This document shows, piece by piece, positions 2,055-5,109 of a stretch of DNA of 5,109 nt. A model generated the notes under the pieces. The model saw nothing but the letters and a program-made list of their open reading frames with translations, was not told the origin of the DNA and ran no database searches. Made by a program: the position numbers and the translations under genes. How positions within the stretch are numbered: position 1 is the stretch's first letter; every line of letters starts with the position of its first letter. The stretch lies in IMG/VR virus record IMGVR_UViG_3300045988_011322; one strand, written 5' to 3'. Source of the DNA: a virus.

Positions 2055-3794
2055 ATGTCACGTAGAATCCGTGTTAAAGGTCATCGTTTTTCAGATGCTC
2101 CTGCTATGTATATGCGTCGTACTAAGTTCGACCGCTCACACGTTTATAAGACTACCTTTGATTCAGGTAAGCTTATTCCTGTGTTTGTTGACGAGGTCTT
2201 GCCTGGCGACACTTCCAGTTTAAGAGTTAAGTATTTTTCTAGACTTGCTACCCCTGTAAAGCCTATCATGGATAATATCTACCTTGATTGGTTCTTCTTT
2301 TTTGTGCCAAACCGTCTTGTATGGAACCATTGGCAAAACTTCTGCTTTGAACAAGAAGACCCTGACGATTCCACTGATTACGTTTGCCCTACCACTTCTT
2401 TGATCGGTAAAGCAGGCGATACTTTGCATGGTGTAGGTACTCTTTGGGACTATTTTGGTCTTCCTACTGGCCTTCCTAATACTATATCTGGTATAAACGC
2501 ACTTCCTTTTCGTGGCGTTTATCTTATCTGGAATGAATGGTTCAGGGATGAAAACCTCCAAAAATCCGTAAAAATCCAGAAAGGTGATACCAATGAGGTT
2601 TTTGACGGTTCACGTGTAGCTGAACAACCTGAATGGCTTCAGGGAATTCCTGAAAGTTATCTTCCTTGTCCGCCTCGTGGCAAGCGGCATGATTATTTTA
2701 CTTCGGCCCTTCCTTGGACTCAGAAAGGTCCCGGTGTGTCTATAGGTTTAGCTGGTACAGCTCCTATAGTAAATCAAGGTACTTTGCCTAACTTCTTTCT
2801 TTCGTCAACGTCTAATCAGCTTGCCGCTGTAACCGCCTATGGCGGTGATGCTTCTAGCTCTGGTGGTTCAAGGGCTGCTCAAGGTACTGGTTCTATTACT
2901 TTTAACCGTGGTTCAGACTCTGATTGGTCTAATATTGGTGGCTTTGCTGGTAATACTTCTAATCGTATCACCATGACTGCTACTCCTGGCAGTTCTTTGC
3001 TTGGCAGCGAATCTTATGTCAATCTTGATGCATCTTCTATATTCACTATTAATAGTTTGCGTACTGCTTTCCAGATGCAGAAGTTTTACGAGCGCCTTGC
3101 TCGTGGCGGTAGTCGGTACACAGAAGTCTTGCGCTCTTTCTTTGGCGTAGTTTCTCCTGATGCTAGATTGCAACGTCCTGAATTTTTAGGCTCGTTTACT
3201 ATGATGATGAATATTAATCCTATAGCTCAGACTTCTAGTACCAACGACACGACACCGCAAGGCAATCTTTCTGCTTATGGTGTTACAGGTGCCAAGTTTC
3301 ATGGTTTTACGAAATCTTTCGTTGAGCATGGCTATGTTTTCGGTTTTTGTTGCGCTCGTGCTGACTTGACTTATCAGCAAGGTATCAATCGCATGTGGAC
3401 TAGGTCTACTGTTTACGATTGGTATTGGCCTACTTTTGCCCATCTAGGTGAGCAGGCTATTTTGCTTAAGGAAATTTATGCTACTGGCGATACCGAACAG
3501 GACAATTCTGTATTTGGCTATCAGGAACGTTATGCTGAGTATCGGTATAAACCTTCTATGATTTGTGGAAAATTTAGGTCTAATATCAAAGGTAATCTTG
3601 ATGTATGGCATTTGTCGCAGTATTTCGAAACTGCTCCTAAGTTGAATTCTGAATTCATTGAGGAAGATGTGCCTATAGGCCGTATTATAGCTGTTCCCAG
3701 TGAGCCTCAATTTTTGATTGATATAGGATTCAAGTACACTACTGTTCGTCCTATGCCTATGTTTGGTACTCCTGGCCTTGTTGATCATTTCTAA
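2055..3794 (+). CDS. VP1: Major capsid protein VP1 (phiX174 F-like jelly roll, gokushovirus type), 579 aa
   Basis: AAGGAG (2043-2048) lies 6 nt before ATG 2055. Conserved blocks are KFDRSHVYKTTFDSGKLIPVFVDEVLPGDT, FFFVPNRLVW, TINSLRTAFQMQKFYERLARGGSRYTEVLRSFFGV..DARLQRPEFLG and VWHLSQ. Confidence 0.97.
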   Translation: MSRRIRVKGHRFSDAPAMYMRRTKFDRSHVYKTTFDSGKLIPVFVDEVLPGDTSSLRVKYFSRLATPVKPIMDNIYLDWFFFFVPNRLVWNHWQNFCFEQEDPDDSTDYVCPTTSLIGKAGDTLHGVGTLWDYFGLPTGLPNTISGINALPFRGVYLIWNEWFRDENLQKSVKIQKGDTNEVFDGSRVAEQPEWLQGIPESYLPCPPRGKRHDYFTSALPWTQKGPGVSIGLAGTAPIVNQGTLPNFFLSSTSNQLAAVTAYGGDASSSGGSRAAQGTGSITFNRGSDSDWSNIGGFAGNTSNRITMTATPGSSLLGSESYVNLDASSIFTINSLRTAFQMQKFYERLARGGSRYTEVLRSFFGVVSPDARLQRPEFLGSFTMMMNINPIAQTSSTNDTTPQGNLSAYGVTGAKFHGFTKSFVEHGYVFGFCCARADLTYQQGINRMWTRSTVYDWYWPTFAHLGEQAILLKEIYATGDTEQDNSVFGYQERYAEYRYKPSMICGKFRSNIKGNLDVWHLSQYFETAPKLNSEFIEEDVPIGRIIAVPSEPQFLIDIGFKYTTVRPMPMFGTPGLVDHF

Positions 3795-3806
3795 GGAGTT
3801 GATTTT

Positions 3807-4565
3807 ATGTCTTGGTTATCTGACGCAGCTGGTTCTATAGCTGGTTCTATATTTGGTTCCGCTGTTCAGGGTCATTATAATTCTGCCGCTTCAGCTCAAC
3901 AAAATGCGTGGAATGTTGAAAATTATAAACATCGTTATCAATGGGCTATGGAAGATATGCGCAATGCTGGTCTTAATCCTATTCTTGCCGCTACTAATGG
4001 TATTGGTGGTAGCATTGCAGGTGCATCTGCTGCTAGTATCGGTATGTCTGATGTTGCTGGCAATCTTAGTTCGGCTCGTGGCGTTTCTGCCGCTTCTAAA
4101 CAGGCTAAAGTAGCTGAGAATCTTTCTGCAAGTCAGATTGAGAAGAATATTGCTGATGCTAAAGCTTCTTCTGCTAATGCTGGTCTTGCTACTGCTAATA
4201 CTACTAATGCAGGTCTTCAAAACAAGATTTTGCAGAATGATGTTGATTTTAAGACTAAAACTTTTGACCAGCGTGTACAATTTGAATTTGACCGTATGAA
4301 AGCTGAAATTGATAATCTTCATAAGCTCGGTCAGATGTATGATGCCAATTCTTTAAATGCAACTGCTTCTGCTTTGCGTGCCAATTCTGCGGCCGCTTTT
4401 GATAATGTTCAAACGGAGCTTGCAGGCTATGAACGTGATTTCTATAAGTCCCTTGGTGACCTTGGAGCTGATGCTAAAGTTATGGGTCCTGCTATTGGTA
4501 AAGGTGTTGCCGGTGTTATTGGTAAAGGCATCGGATTCTTGAGAAAACGTTATTTTGGAAGGTGA
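3807..4565 (+). CDS. VP2: Minor capsid / DNA pilot protein VP2 (252 aa)
   Basis: TAAGGAG (3792-3798, containing the VP1 stop) lies 8 nt before ATG 3807. The N-terminus is Gly/Ser/Ala-rich. The block NYKHRYQWAMEDMRNAGLNPILA is characteristic of gokushovirus VP2. The central region is Ala/Asn-rich and looks coiled. Confidence 0.9.
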   Translation: MSWLSDAAGSIAGSIFGSAVQGHYNSAASAQQNAWNVENYKHRYQWAMEDMRNAGLNPILAATNGIGGSIAGASAASIGMSDVAGNLSSARGVSAASKQAKVAENLSASQIEKNIADAKASSANAGLATANTTNAGLQNKILQNDVDFKTKTFDQRVQFEFDRMKAEIDNLHKLGQMYDANSLNATASALRANSAAAFDNVQTELAGYERDFYKSLGDLGADAKVMGPAIGKGVAGVIGKGIGFLRKRYFGR

Positions 4566-4570
4566 TTTTT

Positions 4571-4810
4571 ATGTCAAACAAAACTACCATGATTCTTACT
4601 TTTATCGTTTCTGTCGTTGTTCCCTTTATTCAAGAAGTTGTAGATTTGATTGAAGCTTTAAAAGGTAAGTCCACTGCTAACTTAGTTACTGCCAAGAAGG
4701 TGGCTTCTGACTTTCAAGCCGATGTTAGTGAAGTTCTTACTCCAGTTTCTTCTAAAAAAGATTCTTCTAAAGGTTCTTCTCGTTTTTTCGGTTCTTGGAG
4801 AGATAAATAA
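4571..4810 (+). CDS. Small hypothetical protein (79 aa) with a hydrophobic N-terminal segment and a basic Ser/Lys-rich tail
   Basis: GGAAGGTGA (4557-4565) overlaps the VP2 stop and precedes ATG 4571. The track's GTG 4562 is an alternative start. Product: MSNKTTMILTFIVSVVVPFIQEVVDLIEAL...SSKKDSSKGSSRFFGSWRDK. Third positions are T-rich as in neighbouring genes. The stop TAA 4808-4810 shares its last A with the next ATG. Confidence 0.6.
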   Translation: MSNKTTMILTFIVSVVVPFIQEVVDLIEALKGKSTANLVTAKKVASDFQADVSEVLTPVSSKKDSSKGSSRFFGSWRDK

Positions 4811-4920
4811 TGCGTAGACGCAGGATTAGCAAAAGAGGTTCTCGTCGCCTCTTCCGCCGTACATCCAAACCCAGACGTAGAAATATTCGTAGAGTACAGC
4901 GAGGCGGATTTAGGATTTGA
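4810..4920 (+). CDS. 36-aa arginine-rich DNA-binding/packaging protein (phiX174 J / gokushovirus ORF8-like); not in the supplied ORF track
   Basis: ATG 4810 overlaps the upstream stop (TAATG). Translation is MRRRRISKRGSRRLFRRTSKPRRRNIRRVQRGGFRI, with stop TGA 4918-4920. It has 16 Arg and 2 Lys in 36 residues. The position after VP2 and the RGGFRI ending match my recollection of gokushovirus ORF8 proteins. Confidence 0.8.
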   Translation: MRRRRISKRGSRRLFRRTSKPRRRNIRRVQRGGFRI

Positions 4921-4945
4921 CAATTCCGTTATAATCCGTTATAAT
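4917..4945 (+). promoter_or_regulatory. Perfect consensus sigma70-type promoter (TTGACA, 17 nt, TATAAT) upstream of VP4
   Basis: TTGACA is at 4917-4922 and overlaps TGA 4918-4920 of the basic-protein ORF. The spacer 4923-4939 is exactly 17 nt. TATAAT is at 4940-4945. The predicted start is near 4952, about 10 nt before the VP4 ATG 4962. Confidence 0.7.
4925..4944 (+). repeat. 10-nt tandem direct repeat (tccgttataa x2), each copy carrying a TATAAT box
   Basis: tccgttataa at 4925-4934 is repeated exactly at 4935-4944. TATAAT occurs at 4930-4935 and 4940-4945. ccgtta (4936-4941, or the earlier copy at 4926-4931) can pair with taacgg (4949-4954). Confidence 0.9.
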
Positions 4946-4961
4946 CTGTAACGGTGATGTT

Positions 4962-5109
4962 ATGGTTTGTTTTAATCCTATGCTTATGACTGATGTTGTT
5001 GGAGCGTATACTAAAAATGGTAAACAGCATCGTGCTTTCTATGGTTCTTTGGCCAATAATCCTCATCTCGCTTCTGATAATAGGTTTATTCGTGTTCCCT
5101 GTGGTCAGT
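4962..5109 (+). CDS. VP4: Replication initiator protein VP4 (HUH rolling-circle endonuclease), N-terminal part; continues at position 56 through the circular junction
   Basis: ATG 4962 follows GGTGA (4953-4957). Translation is MVCFNPMLMTDVVGAYTKNGKQHRAFYGSLANNPHLASDNRFIRVPCGQ, which runs in frame (5055 is equivalent to 1) into CLGCRLERSRQWAVRC. This is the Cys-rich N-terminus typical of microvirus Rep proteins. Confidence 0.85.
   Translation, partial: MVCFNPMLMTDVVGAYTKNGKQHRAFYGSLANNPHLASDNRFIRVPCGQ
5055..5109. repeat. Terminal redundancy, right copy (identical to 1-55)
   Basis: Exact 55/55 match to the window start. Confidence 0.97.

Follow-up and report, generated by a model that had tools for sequence, protein, structure and literature searches.

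A conserved small gene between VP2 and J/VP8 in a clade of animal-gut gokushoviruses encodes a candidate membrane-anchored accessory protein

Small lysis and membrane proteins of microviruses and other small phages

The phiX174 lysis protein E (Pfam Microvir_lysis) is an inhibitor of MraY that requires SlyD and lyses growing cells, and its gene is overprinted in the +1 frame of the scaffolding gene and weakly translated. Both E and the phiX174 K protein are small, non-structural membrane proteins. Most single-gene lysis genes of ssRNA phages are also overprinted, and they are poorly conserved. In animal guts, gokushoviruses rank among the most abundant ssDNA phages. A preliminary description of the DNA analysed here stated that gokushovirus-type microviruses have no recognisable E homologue, and in the literature they have neither a recognised lysis gene nor a known route of exit from the host (PMC7062461, PMC3394797). 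One gokushovirus, EC6098, lyses E. coli (PMC7062461). Pilot proteins have membrane helices at the N-terminus (PMC3394797), and the C-terminal aromatic residues of J/VP8 occupy a pocket in the capsid (PMC11281519). The microvirus Ebor encodes a 45-aa predicted membrane protein, Gp1, near the gene for its pilot protein (Gp3); Gp1 was undetected in virions (PMC11980548 Table 1).

The gene described here, ORFx, resembles phiX174 E only superficially. Both encode a small microvirus protein (79 aa for ORFx, 91 aa for E) whose N-terminal helix, a predicted one in ORFx, is hydrophobic and includes a conserved proline and whose extreme C-terminus is basic, and both are carried on late transcripts. The preliminary description took this as the same overall layout, a comparison that is not supported: ORFx resembles neither E nor any characterised protein in sequence, profile or fold. 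The gene is not overprinted but fills the interval between VP2 and J, and it has a strong Shine-Dalgarno (SD) site of the GGAGG type, a much weaker hydrophobic segment and reversed flanking charges. The acidic amphipathic segment and the conserved SRF motif at its C-terminus have no counterpart in E.

ORFx can be compared with other small phage proteins in similar terms. Like MS2 L and LysM of phage M, it is small, has a single moderately hydrophobic helix and no enzymatic domain, and comes from a very small genome without an endolysin. In MS2 L, however, the helix is C-terminal and accompanied by an LS motif, and ORFx differs from the ssRNA phage lysis genes in being free-standing and hyper-conserved, with no sequence relation to them. 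The likeness to Ebor Gp1, a small predicted membrane protein encoded near a pilot gene, is one of description only. Because Ebor carries a gene for a peptidoglycan hydrolase as well, its Gp1 may be holin-like, whereas this genome encodes no hydrolase: the eight proteins tested lack peptidase and lysozyme domains, and neither an endolysin nor an E homologue was found among them. ORFx therefore does not belong to the class of holins that act with an endolysin. In i-spanin/o-spanin pairs such as P2 LysB/LysC, a type II N-terminal anchor is followed by a long helix, as is possible for ORFx, and a +1-frame ORF begins in the 3' part of ORFx and ends past its stop. This second ORF, however, is just 31-35 aa long, has no lipobox or Cys and is absent as a conserved frame in distant members; ORFx itself is shorter than i-spanins, and the genome has neither holin nor endolysin.

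Gene context, family and selection

The window is the whole 5,109-nt stretch of DNA analysed, taken from IMG/VR record IMGVR_UViG_3300045988_011322. Its ends share a 55-nt terminal direct repeat, indicating a circular source genome of 5054 nt. ORFx (4571-4810, plus strand) extends from an ATG at 4571 to a TAA at 4808-4810 and encodes 79 aa plus the stop (MSNKTTMILTFIVSVVVPFIQEVVDLIEALKGKSTANLVTAKKVASDFQADVSEVLTPVSSKKDSSKGSSRFFGSWRDK). Directly upstream on the same strand is the gene for VP2, the DNA pilot protein (3807-4565; phrog_8693, E-value: 4.6e-63). The SD site of ORFx (GGAAGGTG; 4557-4564, plus strand) is 6 nt 5' of the ATG and overlaps the VP2 stop codon (TGA, 4563-4565), such that the last VP2 codons (Y-F-G-R-stop) share nucleotides with the ORFx ribosome-binding site. 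VP2 C-termini throughout the family read FGG(D/R), which is encoded by the GGAGG SD of ORFx. Downstream, the final A of the ORFx TAA is the first base of the ATG at 4810 (TAATG) of a J/VP8-like gene (4810-4920, plus strand; phrog_10695, E-value: 0.0047) for an Arg-rich DNA-binding protein of 36 aa (MRRRRISKRGSRRLFRRTSKPRRRNIRRVQRGGFRI). The SD of this gene (GGAGAG; 4797-4802, plus strand) is inside ORFx codons W76-R77, and the W-R-D codons of ORFx thus double as a ribosome site for J/VP8. The translational chaining claimed in the preliminary description, with an SD over the VP2 stop and a TAA overlapping the next ATG, is present in the sequence at both junctions. A strong ribosome site serves ORFx, the middle gene of the chain VP2, ORFx, J/VP8. 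It is not itself the J/VP8 DNA-binding protein, having a net charge of only about +3; the next ORF (4810-4920) fills this role.

ORFx is a member of phrog_23638, a family annotated as of unknown function; the match is full-length, with residues 1-78 aligned to positions 1-77 of the 79-position profile (E-value: 9e-41). Twenty GenBank phage records carry a family member at the same position after VP2, with 58-86% identity in tblastn local alignments. These include the "hypothetical proteins" ARQ16029.1 (KX513872) and ARQ16039.1 (KX513874) of human gut gokushoviruses; in many GenBank records the gene is left unannotated. The family comprises 256 IMG/VR loci and 493 clusters at 90% identity, one of which has more than 1,200 member sequences. 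When the ORFx profile was compared with 1.84 billion representatives, about 30 clusters were obtained. Of the 19 full-length clusters inspected, all but two evident artefacts (P0144 and P0150) consist of similar small proteins, with no recognisable cellular homologue among them. A scan of contigs for prophages or hosts gave a single 22-residue match in an Acidobacteriota MAG, which was rejected as spurious. A VP2-profile scan of IMG/VR for distant positional analogues recovered the same clade only.

No match of known function was found in Pfam, NCBIfam or PHROGs. ORFx has no Pfam match at E-values up to 1, no NCBIfam match and no match at E-values up to 10 in profile and sequence searches of the PDB, which presumably includes the MraY-E-SlyD complex. 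Foldseek comparison of the AF2 model with BFVD was also without a match of known function, and so homology to a lysis protein was found in none of Pfam, NCBIfam, the PDB or Foldseek/BFVD. Kinship with VP2 was considered and discarded, as the hhalign match between ORFx and VP2 covers four residues (RFFG/RYFG).

An ATG-started ORF is present at the ORFx position in all 85 related loci, with 79-80 codons (96 in one), and in every locus a GGAGG/AAGGAG-type SD occurs in the same place, as it also does in distant relatives. The ORFx start is 4-5 nt past the VP2 stop in 72 of the 85, and the overlap of the ORFx stop with the J start is found in 84; in some distant family members the J gene begins 17-218 nt further downstream. 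The preliminary description had proposed syntenic conservation and purifying selection as checks, and both came out in favour of the gene: ORFx is retained without stops or frameshifts in 85 of 85 loci, with an overall dN/dS of 0.19, comparable to that of VP1 (0.17) and VP4 (0.17). Constraint is uneven along the protein, with pN/pS of 0.024 in codons 1-32 (pN 0.014, pS 0.53) and 0.51 in codons 33-69. Across codons 1-48, variation at position 3 is far above that at positions 1 or 2, and pN/pS in the alternative frames is 2.6-8.6. ORFx is a real protein-coding gene. Its median identity within the clade is 79.5% (VP1 73%, VP2 56%). In deep comparisons its N-terminal 32 residues are 77-84% identical where VP1 is only 42-49% and Rep 44-46% identical; together with the VP2 N-terminal block (57-88%), they are the two most conserved peptide segments. 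In the EC6098 genome, VP8 directly follows VP2 and a gene of the ORFx type is absent. Because EC6098 is lytic without it, ORFx is a clade-specific addition and not the general gokushovirus solution to lysis. It is a late gene restricted to one group of gokushoviruses from animal guts.

Protein anatomy and the predicted membrane helix

In ORFx, conserved N- and C-terminal segments flank a variable linker. An uncharged hydrophobic run (TTMILTFIVSVVVPFI; 4583-4630, plus strand; codons 5-20, T5-I20, 16 aa) contains an invariant proline, Pro18, and is 16 residues long in all 21 family representatives. The other invariant residues of the run in the family alignment are I8, L9, F11 and F19, and its substitutions are exclusively to hydrophobic or small residues. 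The hydrophobic stretch and proline noted earlier are thus real, but the protein does not begin with them: it starts MSNKTT, and the run is T5-I20. The helix continues as an acidic amphipathic segment (QEVVDLIEALKG; 4631-4666, plus strand; codons 21-32) with E22, D25 and E28 on one face; D25 is invariant in the family alignment, and Q21, I27 and L30 are nearly so. The polar linker (4667-4777, plus strand; codons 33-69) has indels, little conservation and low-confidence structure and is probably disordered; it is neutral to acidic in charge and is the main source of the spread in family length (75-100 aa). The protein ends in a basic-aromatic motif, SRFFGSWRDK (4778-4807, plus strand; codons 70-79), of which (S/R)-R-F-(F/L/I) is found in all family members. 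R71 and F72 are invariant throughout the family, even where the J gene starts 17-218 nt further downstream. The last 19 residues here carry +6/-2 charges, in keeping with the basic Ser/Lys-rich tail described previously; this tail is not a family feature, however, as only the last 12 or so residues are basic/aromatic in the family. AF2 models one continuous 54-residue helix, confident for residues 1-30, with pLDDT of 89-96 in codons 5-20 and 46-69 in the linker. A single helix was again obtained with a diverse alignment.

The earlier proposal of a transmembrane helix is borne out in part. The N-terminus has a Kyte-Doolittle mean over 19 residues (KD19) of 2.06, above the classical membrane cut-off of 1.6 over 19 aa, and a GES value of 30.2 kcal/mol over 20 aa. 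The corresponding KD19/GES20 values of MS2 L (1.74/26.0) and Pf3 coat (2.21/31.5) are close to those of ORFx. The simple Hessa 19-residue sum of +4.2 kcal/mol, however, makes insertion marginal on the biological scale. Compared with phiX174 E, ORFx has a shorter uncharged run (16 against 24 residues), a lower KD19 (2.06 against 2.79), a less favourable Hessa sum (+4.2 against -3.4) and different N/C flank charges (+1/-1 against 0/+5). ORFx is thus borderline-positive for a membrane helix and far below E. Codons 5-20 probably form the core of a membrane-spanning or buried helix, and on balance the protein is somewhat more readily seen as membrane-anchored than as soluble. In all but one of the 21 family members, the 15 residues after the run carry a net charge of -1 to -2. 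Given flank charges of +1 before the helix and -1 after it, the positive-inside rule would favour an N-in/C-out orientation; by this rule alone, the reversal of the flanks relative to E predicts a topology opposite to that of E, which is N-out/C-in with a basic cytoplasmic flank after the helix. The hydrophobic segment is not a cleaved Sec signal peptide or a lipoprotein signal because it has no AXA-like site and no Cys, and the run continues P-F-I-Q-E-V-V.

Candidate functions and the constrained 3' end

The proposed model for ORFx is as follows. The N-terminal helix would act as an uncleaved signal-anchor in the host cytoplasmic membrane; in an N-in/C-out placement, the linker and SRF tail would be exposed at its outer face. 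ORFx would then be a non-structural, late-expressed accessory protein acting on the envelope, where its most likely effect would be to bring about or time host lysis as a new effector of the single-gene-lysis type. Lysis is put forward here as the leading role within this model, tentatively and as a conjecture. It fits the pattern that small membrane proteins of microviruses are non-structural (phiX174 E and K) or undetected in virions (Ebor Gp1), and the extreme constraint on the N-terminus agrees with a partner that is itself highly conserved, for instance an enzyme of the host membrane. Several features point the other way. Judging by its strong SD and its coupling to structural genes, ORFx is made abundantly, whereas small phages do not typically make their single-gene lysis proteins in quantity; other gokushoviruses, EC6098 among them, lyse or exist without the gene; and a plain membrane anchor does not need a near-invariant sequence. 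In addition, the conserved C-terminal motif and the hyper-conservation parallel to that of the VP2 N-terminus equally fit a partner inside the virus. A more specific form of the lysis model, which is speculative and unlikely to be correct as it stands, makes ORFx a "protein antibiotic": a free-standing, hyper-conserved lysis protein with a type II anchor, whose outward SRF tail would block a conserved step of envelope synthesis in a host with strong Shine-Dalgarno sites, possibly Gram-positive. This would be the first lysis mechanism for any gokushovirus. More generally, ORFx is the most conserved short peptide encoded by these genomes, in a family abundant in metagenomes, and action on the envelope would point to a conserved bacterial target in gut anaerobes and to a new small lysis or inhibitor scaffold.

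The main rival to the lysis model is a DNA-delivery or assembly factor associated with VP2. ORFx would in that case be part of the virion or procapsid, its helix co-assembling with the VP2 N-terminus or entering the host membrane at DNA delivery, and its SRF motif docking to the capsid interior or scaffold. The position of the gene between VP2 and the packaged J/VP8, chained to both in the 85 loci and in distant relatives, is consistent with this role, as are an SD strong enough to suggest synthesis at structural levels and the fact that the two most conserved segments in deep comparisons are the N-termini of ORFx (77-84%) and of VP2 (57-88% in its N-terminal block). Pilot proteins use N-terminal membrane helices (PMC3394797), and the C-terminal aromatics of J/VP8 that dock in the capsid pocket are a precedent for short docking motifs (PMC11281519). 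Related gokushoviruses, however, including the structurally studied EC6098, make infectious virions without ORFx, and the small membrane proteins of other microviruses are non-structural or undetected in virions. VP2 as a whole is fast-evolving, at 56% median identity, in contrast to the nearly invariant N-terminus of ORFx, and the RYFG/RFFG likeness to VP2 is largely set by overlapping SD sequences. A C-terminal motif shared by VP2, ORFx and J was rejected as a capsid-docking signal for the same reason, since GGAGG encodes G-G/G-R and TGGAGR encodes W-R; once the SD effect is removed, only S/R-R-F-(F/L/I) remains at the protein level. A VP2-partner role is thus possible but doubtful; if correct, the DNA-delivery machinery of microviruses would gain a further component. 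In either case, the 79-codon gene is a cheap and well-defined experimental target.

It is also conceivable, but improbable, that ORFx is a membrane-anchored accessory protein with no part in lysis, serving in superinfection exclusion, as a tether for replication or assembly, or as a modulator of burst size like phiX174 K. The evidence for a membrane anchor is identical to that for the lysis model, a variable linker between two conserved ends suits a tether, and a clade-specific gene that is dispensable in the wider subfamily is usual for accessory functions. Accessory or exclusion genes are, however, usually among the least conserved, and ORFx is among the most conserved genes of the clade (79.5%, compared with 73% for VP1) and was never found disrupted; nor does it show similarity to known exclusion proteins in PHROGs, Pfam or NCBIfam.

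Less probable again is that ORFx is soluble and helical, serving as an assembly chaperone or additional scaffold or regulating J/VP8 or DNA packaging, with its hydrophobic N-terminus buried in an oligomer or partner. The Hessa sum of +4.2 argues against autonomous insertion, the hydrophobic core is just 16 residues long and is followed immediately by Q-E..D..E, AF2 gives a single continuous 54-residue helix, and conservation of all N-terminal residues is typical of a protein-protein interface. Nevertheless, the KD and GES criteria for a membrane helix are satisfied, beta-branched runs containing Pro, of which ILTFIVSVVVPFI is one, are characteristic of membrane helices and ill-suited to soluble coiled coils, and a heptad pattern is not evident by eye in the sequence.

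The 3' third of ORFx (4721-4795, plus strand) is the zone of strongest synonymous-site constraint in the genome. Observed/expected synonymous codon diversity there is 0.17-0.35, the three lowest values of 240 windows, and codon identity among identical residues is 0.84, compared with 0.60 in codons 1-48. In nine diverse sequences CGTTTTTTCGGTTC, followed by TGGAG and GA, is invariant, with two variable bases (Y and R) between. A second, overprinted gene in the +1 frame (4722-4817), whose 31-aa product MLVKFLLQFLLKKILLKVLLVFSVLGEINNA would be an amphipathic cationic peptide and the true E-like lysis factor, would account for this peak of constraint, for a +1 frame that is open with an ATG in most clade loci and for a +1-frame pN/pS of 0.66 in columns 49-59 (2.6 in a control region), but it is very unlikely: 36% of random synonymous recodings of ORFx also give an ATG and an open +1 frame, distant family members that retain ORFx have +1 stops, codon-position diversity is unlike that of a +1 gene, the AAGGTGG upstream ends 18 nt away and leaves no SD at a useful distance, and the J SD together with the conserved SRFFGSWRD motif accounts for part of the constraint. 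This second ORF has probably arisen as a by-product. A hydrophobic ORF embedded in VP4 (233-463) is open in 72 of 75 loci and was likewise considered as an E-like gene; it was rejected, as its +1-frame pN/pS of 1.86 equals that of the flanks and indicates no selection, and it is regarded as a by-product of T-rich codon composition. RNA structure was also rejected as an explanation of this synonymous constraint, since the predicted fold is no stabler than those of shuffled sequences (z = +1.0). A weak U-G-rich hairpin for which RNAalifold shows no covariation does lie over the J SD, at about 4782-4804, and it may sequester this site.

Genome organization and the VP2-ORFx-J gene chain

The window is a complete circular gokushovirus genome. 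An exact 55-nt direct repeat at its termini (1-55 and 5055-5109) represents the assembly overlap of the circle, giving a true length of 5054 nt. Its closest GenBank records are gokushoviruses from the gut of humans, pigs and dogs, with ~74-82% nucleotide identity across VP3-VP1-VP2. All genes lie on the + strand. VP4/Rep starts near 4962 and continues across the junction to 819. It is followed, before VP5 (1079-1357; PF20577), by a TTG-initiated + strand ORF of 93 codons (820-1101). This ORF is very poorly conserved (median identity 31%), has no SD site and no family match, and may be a non-coding or hypervariable region. Next are VP3 (scaffold; listed ORF 1372-1926; PF09675), VP1 (2055-3794; PF02305, E-value: 8.8e-162) and the VP2 pilot protein gene (3807-4565; phrog_8693, E-value: 4.6e-63). 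A perfect 11-bp hairpin followed by a T-run (1381-1406), resembling a terminator, lies 24 nt past the VP5 stop and inside codons 1-12 of VP3 as listed. Because of this position, the late start of the VP3 matches (residue 48 for Pfam and 32 for PHROG) and the shorter VP3 proteins of relatives (121-160 aa), the true VP3 start is probably downstream of 1372.

ORFx, the 79-codon ORF at 4571-4810 (+), is situated between VP2 and a J/VP8-like gene (J; 4810-4920, +) encoding an Arg-rich protein of 36 aa. All of the features ascribed to ORFx in the preliminary description are present: a Shine-Dalgarno (SD) site, GGAAGGTG, at 4557-4564 overlaps the VP2 stop, ORFx ends in a TAA that has one A in common with the J ATG, and the product reads MSNKTT-MILTFIVSVVVPFI-QEVVDLIEALKG-...-SRFFGSWRDK. 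The protein matches phrog_23638 over its full length (E-value: 9e-41). Clustering at 90% gives 493 relatives, almost all of 79-80 aa and on contigs of ~5 kb, and IMG/VR has 256. The gene is also present in 20 phage records of GenBank that are of faecal origin (human, pig, dog, monkey and mink), where it is annotated as 'hypothetical protein' or left unannotated. Databases already list the family, unnamed and hypothetical. Within the literature searched, no paper discusses it.

The suggested search for a syntenic small ORF recovered an ATG start with a GGAGG/AAGGAG site in 85 of 85 fetched loci. The ORF begins 4-5 nt past the VP2 stop in 72 of these, in 84 its stop codon and the start of J overlap, and distant family members retain both the VP2-ORFx-J order and a strong SD. 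A chance ORF is ruled out: ORFx is a real late gene, chained to VP2 and J, and its product is probably made in substantial amounts. The conserved VP2 C-terminal 'YFGG(D/R)' is co-encoded with the ORFx GGAGG ribosome site (4548-4565; homologous sites in the related loci L087-L093), and 'W-R' near the ORFx C-terminus likewise co-encodes the J ribosome site, so these short C-terminal 'motifs' are partly nucleotide-level signals.

A perfect sigma-70 consensus (TTGACA, 17 nt, TATAAT; 12/12, with no second such match genome-wide) is found at 4917-4945, between the end of J and the Rep start, with its -35 hexamer overlapping the J stop (4918-4920). This is probably the Rep/early promoter, in which case ORFx and J would end the preceding transcription unit. 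Strong GGAGG-type sites are present at all well-supported gene starts; they would argue against a Bacteroidota host and be compatible with one in the Firmicutes or Proteobacteria. Clostridiales have been speculated to be hosts of some gut gokushoviruses (Roux et al., PMC3394797). A scan of genome contigs found no prophage or host link.

Conservation and predicted structure of the ORFx protein

ORFx is under purifying selection, as the preliminary description had proposed checking: its dN/dS (Nei-Gojobori) is 0.19, compared with 0.17 for both VP1 and VP4 and 0.40 for VP2. Median amino acid identity to the window is 79.5% for ORFx, 76.5% for VP4, 73.3% for VP1, 63% for VP3, 56% for VP2 and 55% for VP5. 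Over codons 1-32, pN is 0.014 and pS 0.53 (ratio 0.024). Over codons 1-48, diversity is 0.24-0.28 at third positions versus 0.00-0.05 at the others, and the two alternative frames have pN/pS values of 2.6 and 8.6; it is therefore the protein, rather than the DNA, that is constrained. Even between distant genomes, with VP1 42-49% and Rep 44-46% identical, residues 1-32 remain 77-84% identical, the sole near rival being the N-terminal block of VP2 (57-88%). In VP2, residues 36-68 (3912-4010; NVENYKHRYQW..D...AGLNPILA.T.G..G) form a block that varies little or not at all among VP2 proteins whose identity is otherwise 33-59%; no peptide encoded by these genomes is more conserved than this block and the ORFx N-terminus.

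When 1.84 billion representatives were searched exhaustively with a profile, only ~30 clusters (50% identity) were recovered. Of these, the full-length ones examined were small proteins of the ORFx type, except for two evident artefacts (P0144 and P0150). The ORFx product is helical; both of its ends are conserved, whereas the linker between them varies. M1, I8, L9, F11, P18, F19, D25, R71 and F72 are invariant in the family alignment, and K4, T6, T10, I20, Q21, I27 and L30 nearly so. An uncharged run, 16 residues long in every member, is followed by an acidic amphipathic continuation (E22, D25 and E28 share one face), a polar linker varying in sequence and length (total 75-100 aa) and a C-terminal (S/R)-R-F-(F/L/I) (SRF) motif. 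AlphaFold2, run with a shallow and then a diverse alignment, predicts a single helix from residue 2-3 to 56 (pLDDT 86-96 over the first 30 residues, low further on). No match was found by Foldseek against BFVD, by PDB profile searches, or in Pfam or NCBIfam.

On classical criteria the N-terminus qualifies as a membrane helix: it scores 2.06 on the Kyte-Doolittle scale (19 residues; cut-off 1.6) and 30.2 kcal/mol on the GES scale (20 residues; cut-off about 20); the position-independent sum on the Hessa biological scale is marginal (+4.2 kcal/mol). Corresponding Kyte-Doolittle/GES/Hessa values are 1.74/26.0/+3.4 for MS2 L, 2.21/31.5/+0.9 for Pf3 coat and 2.79/48.8/-3.4 for phiX174 E. By this comparison ORFx resembles weaker but genuine membrane helices and is far less hydrophobic than E. 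A membrane helix is also favoured because the run never varies in length, substitutions within it are purely hydrophobic and it is beta-branched and contains a Pro. That every residue is nearly invariant indicates that the helix makes specific contacts as well. On balance, ORFx is predicted to be membrane-anchored. Inspection revealed neither an AXA-like site nor a Cys behind the helix, pointing to an uncleaved signal-anchor. The net charge is +1 on the N-terminal flank and -1 to -2 on the C-terminal one, for which the positive-inside rule predicts a likely N-in/C-out topology.

Possible functions of ORFx

The preliminary description likened ORFx to lysis protein E of phiX174. The likeness holds for size, for the N-terminal hydrophobic helix with a proline and for a few basic C-terminal residues, but for nothing else. 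The two share no detectable homology; E is overprinted and has a weak ribosome site, whereas ORFx is free-standing with a strong one. The uncharged core is 24 residues in E versus 16 in ORFx, E has flank charges of 0 and +5 and the reverse of the topology predicted for ORFx, and it lacks the conserved acidic helix and SRF motif. The basic Ser/Lys-rich tail is specific to the window's subclade; members of the family at large have a neutral to acidic linker. The E-like lysis reading is at present only a hypothesis.

The ORFx gene is a clade-specific insertion. In the gokushovirus EC6098 no gene separates VP2 (3573-4352) from VP8 (4355-4474), and the parrot and chicken gokushoviruses examined have no ORFx homologue. 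As EC6098 lyses E. coli and forms plaques (PMC7062461), ORFx is not the general gokushovirus lysis gene, although small phages as a rule have lysis genes specific to their lineage. A different 33-codon GTG-start ORF with a GGAGG site lies between VP2 and the VP8-like gene of a chicken microvirus (L175, MN379641.1; 2571-2672) and is possibly a non-homologous positional analogue.

The tentative model is as follows. With the N-terminal helix as an uncleaved signal-anchor in the cytoplasmic membrane (N-in/C-out), the basic-aromatic SRF tail would lie external to that membrane. ORFx would then act on the host envelope, most likely by causing or timing lysis. This role as a lysis or envelope effector is conjectural and less likely than not, though it is the leading reading. 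In its favour, the other lysis candidates of the genome all failed when tested, conservation this extreme is compatible with a conserved target in the host, and the known small membrane proteins of microviruses are non-structural or undetected in virions: phiX174 E and K are non-structural, and Gp1 of microvirus Ebor was not detected in virions (PMC11980548). Strong expression, dispensability in relatives and the lack of homology to any lysis protein argue against it. A VP2-associated delivery or assembly factor is a doubtful reading, another membrane accessory role is rather improbable, and a soluble assembly or regulatory protein is unlikely. If the envelope effector model is true, ORFx would join the small phage membrane/lysis proteins while being unrelated in sequence to any characterized one; the finding itself is real and merits experiment.

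Overlapping and alternative-frame ORFs

Synonymous constraint is strongest, genome-wide, at 4721-4795 in the final (3') third of ORFx, where the three lowest observed/expected values of all 240 windows occur (0.17-0.35). This zone is overlapped by a +1 ORF of 31 aa (4722-4817, +), to which a pN/pS of 0.66 over a short stretch lends some support. That part of the function comes from this overprinted ORF is very improbable: a comparable ATG and open frame arise in 36% of synonymous recodings, the ORF is broken in distant family members, and the codon-position pattern is unlike that of a +1 gene. It is probably a by-product. The J ribosome site inside the W-R-D codons, a weak SD-sequestering hairpin and the conserved SRFFGSWRD peptide account for only part of the constraint.

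Many hydrophobic alternative-frame ORFs result from the T-rich genome. The most striking, ORF 233-463 (+1 frame in VP4; 76 codons), is very hydrophobic and is open in 72 of 75 related loci; of the 12 commonest variants listed, 11 span 82 codons from stop to stop. Across this ORF the synonymous diversity of VP4 is modestly lowered (observed/expected 0.39-0.56). As a lysis gene it was rejected, since its own-frame pN/pS of 1.86 equals that of flanking controls and indicates no purifying selection; it is probably a composition artefact.
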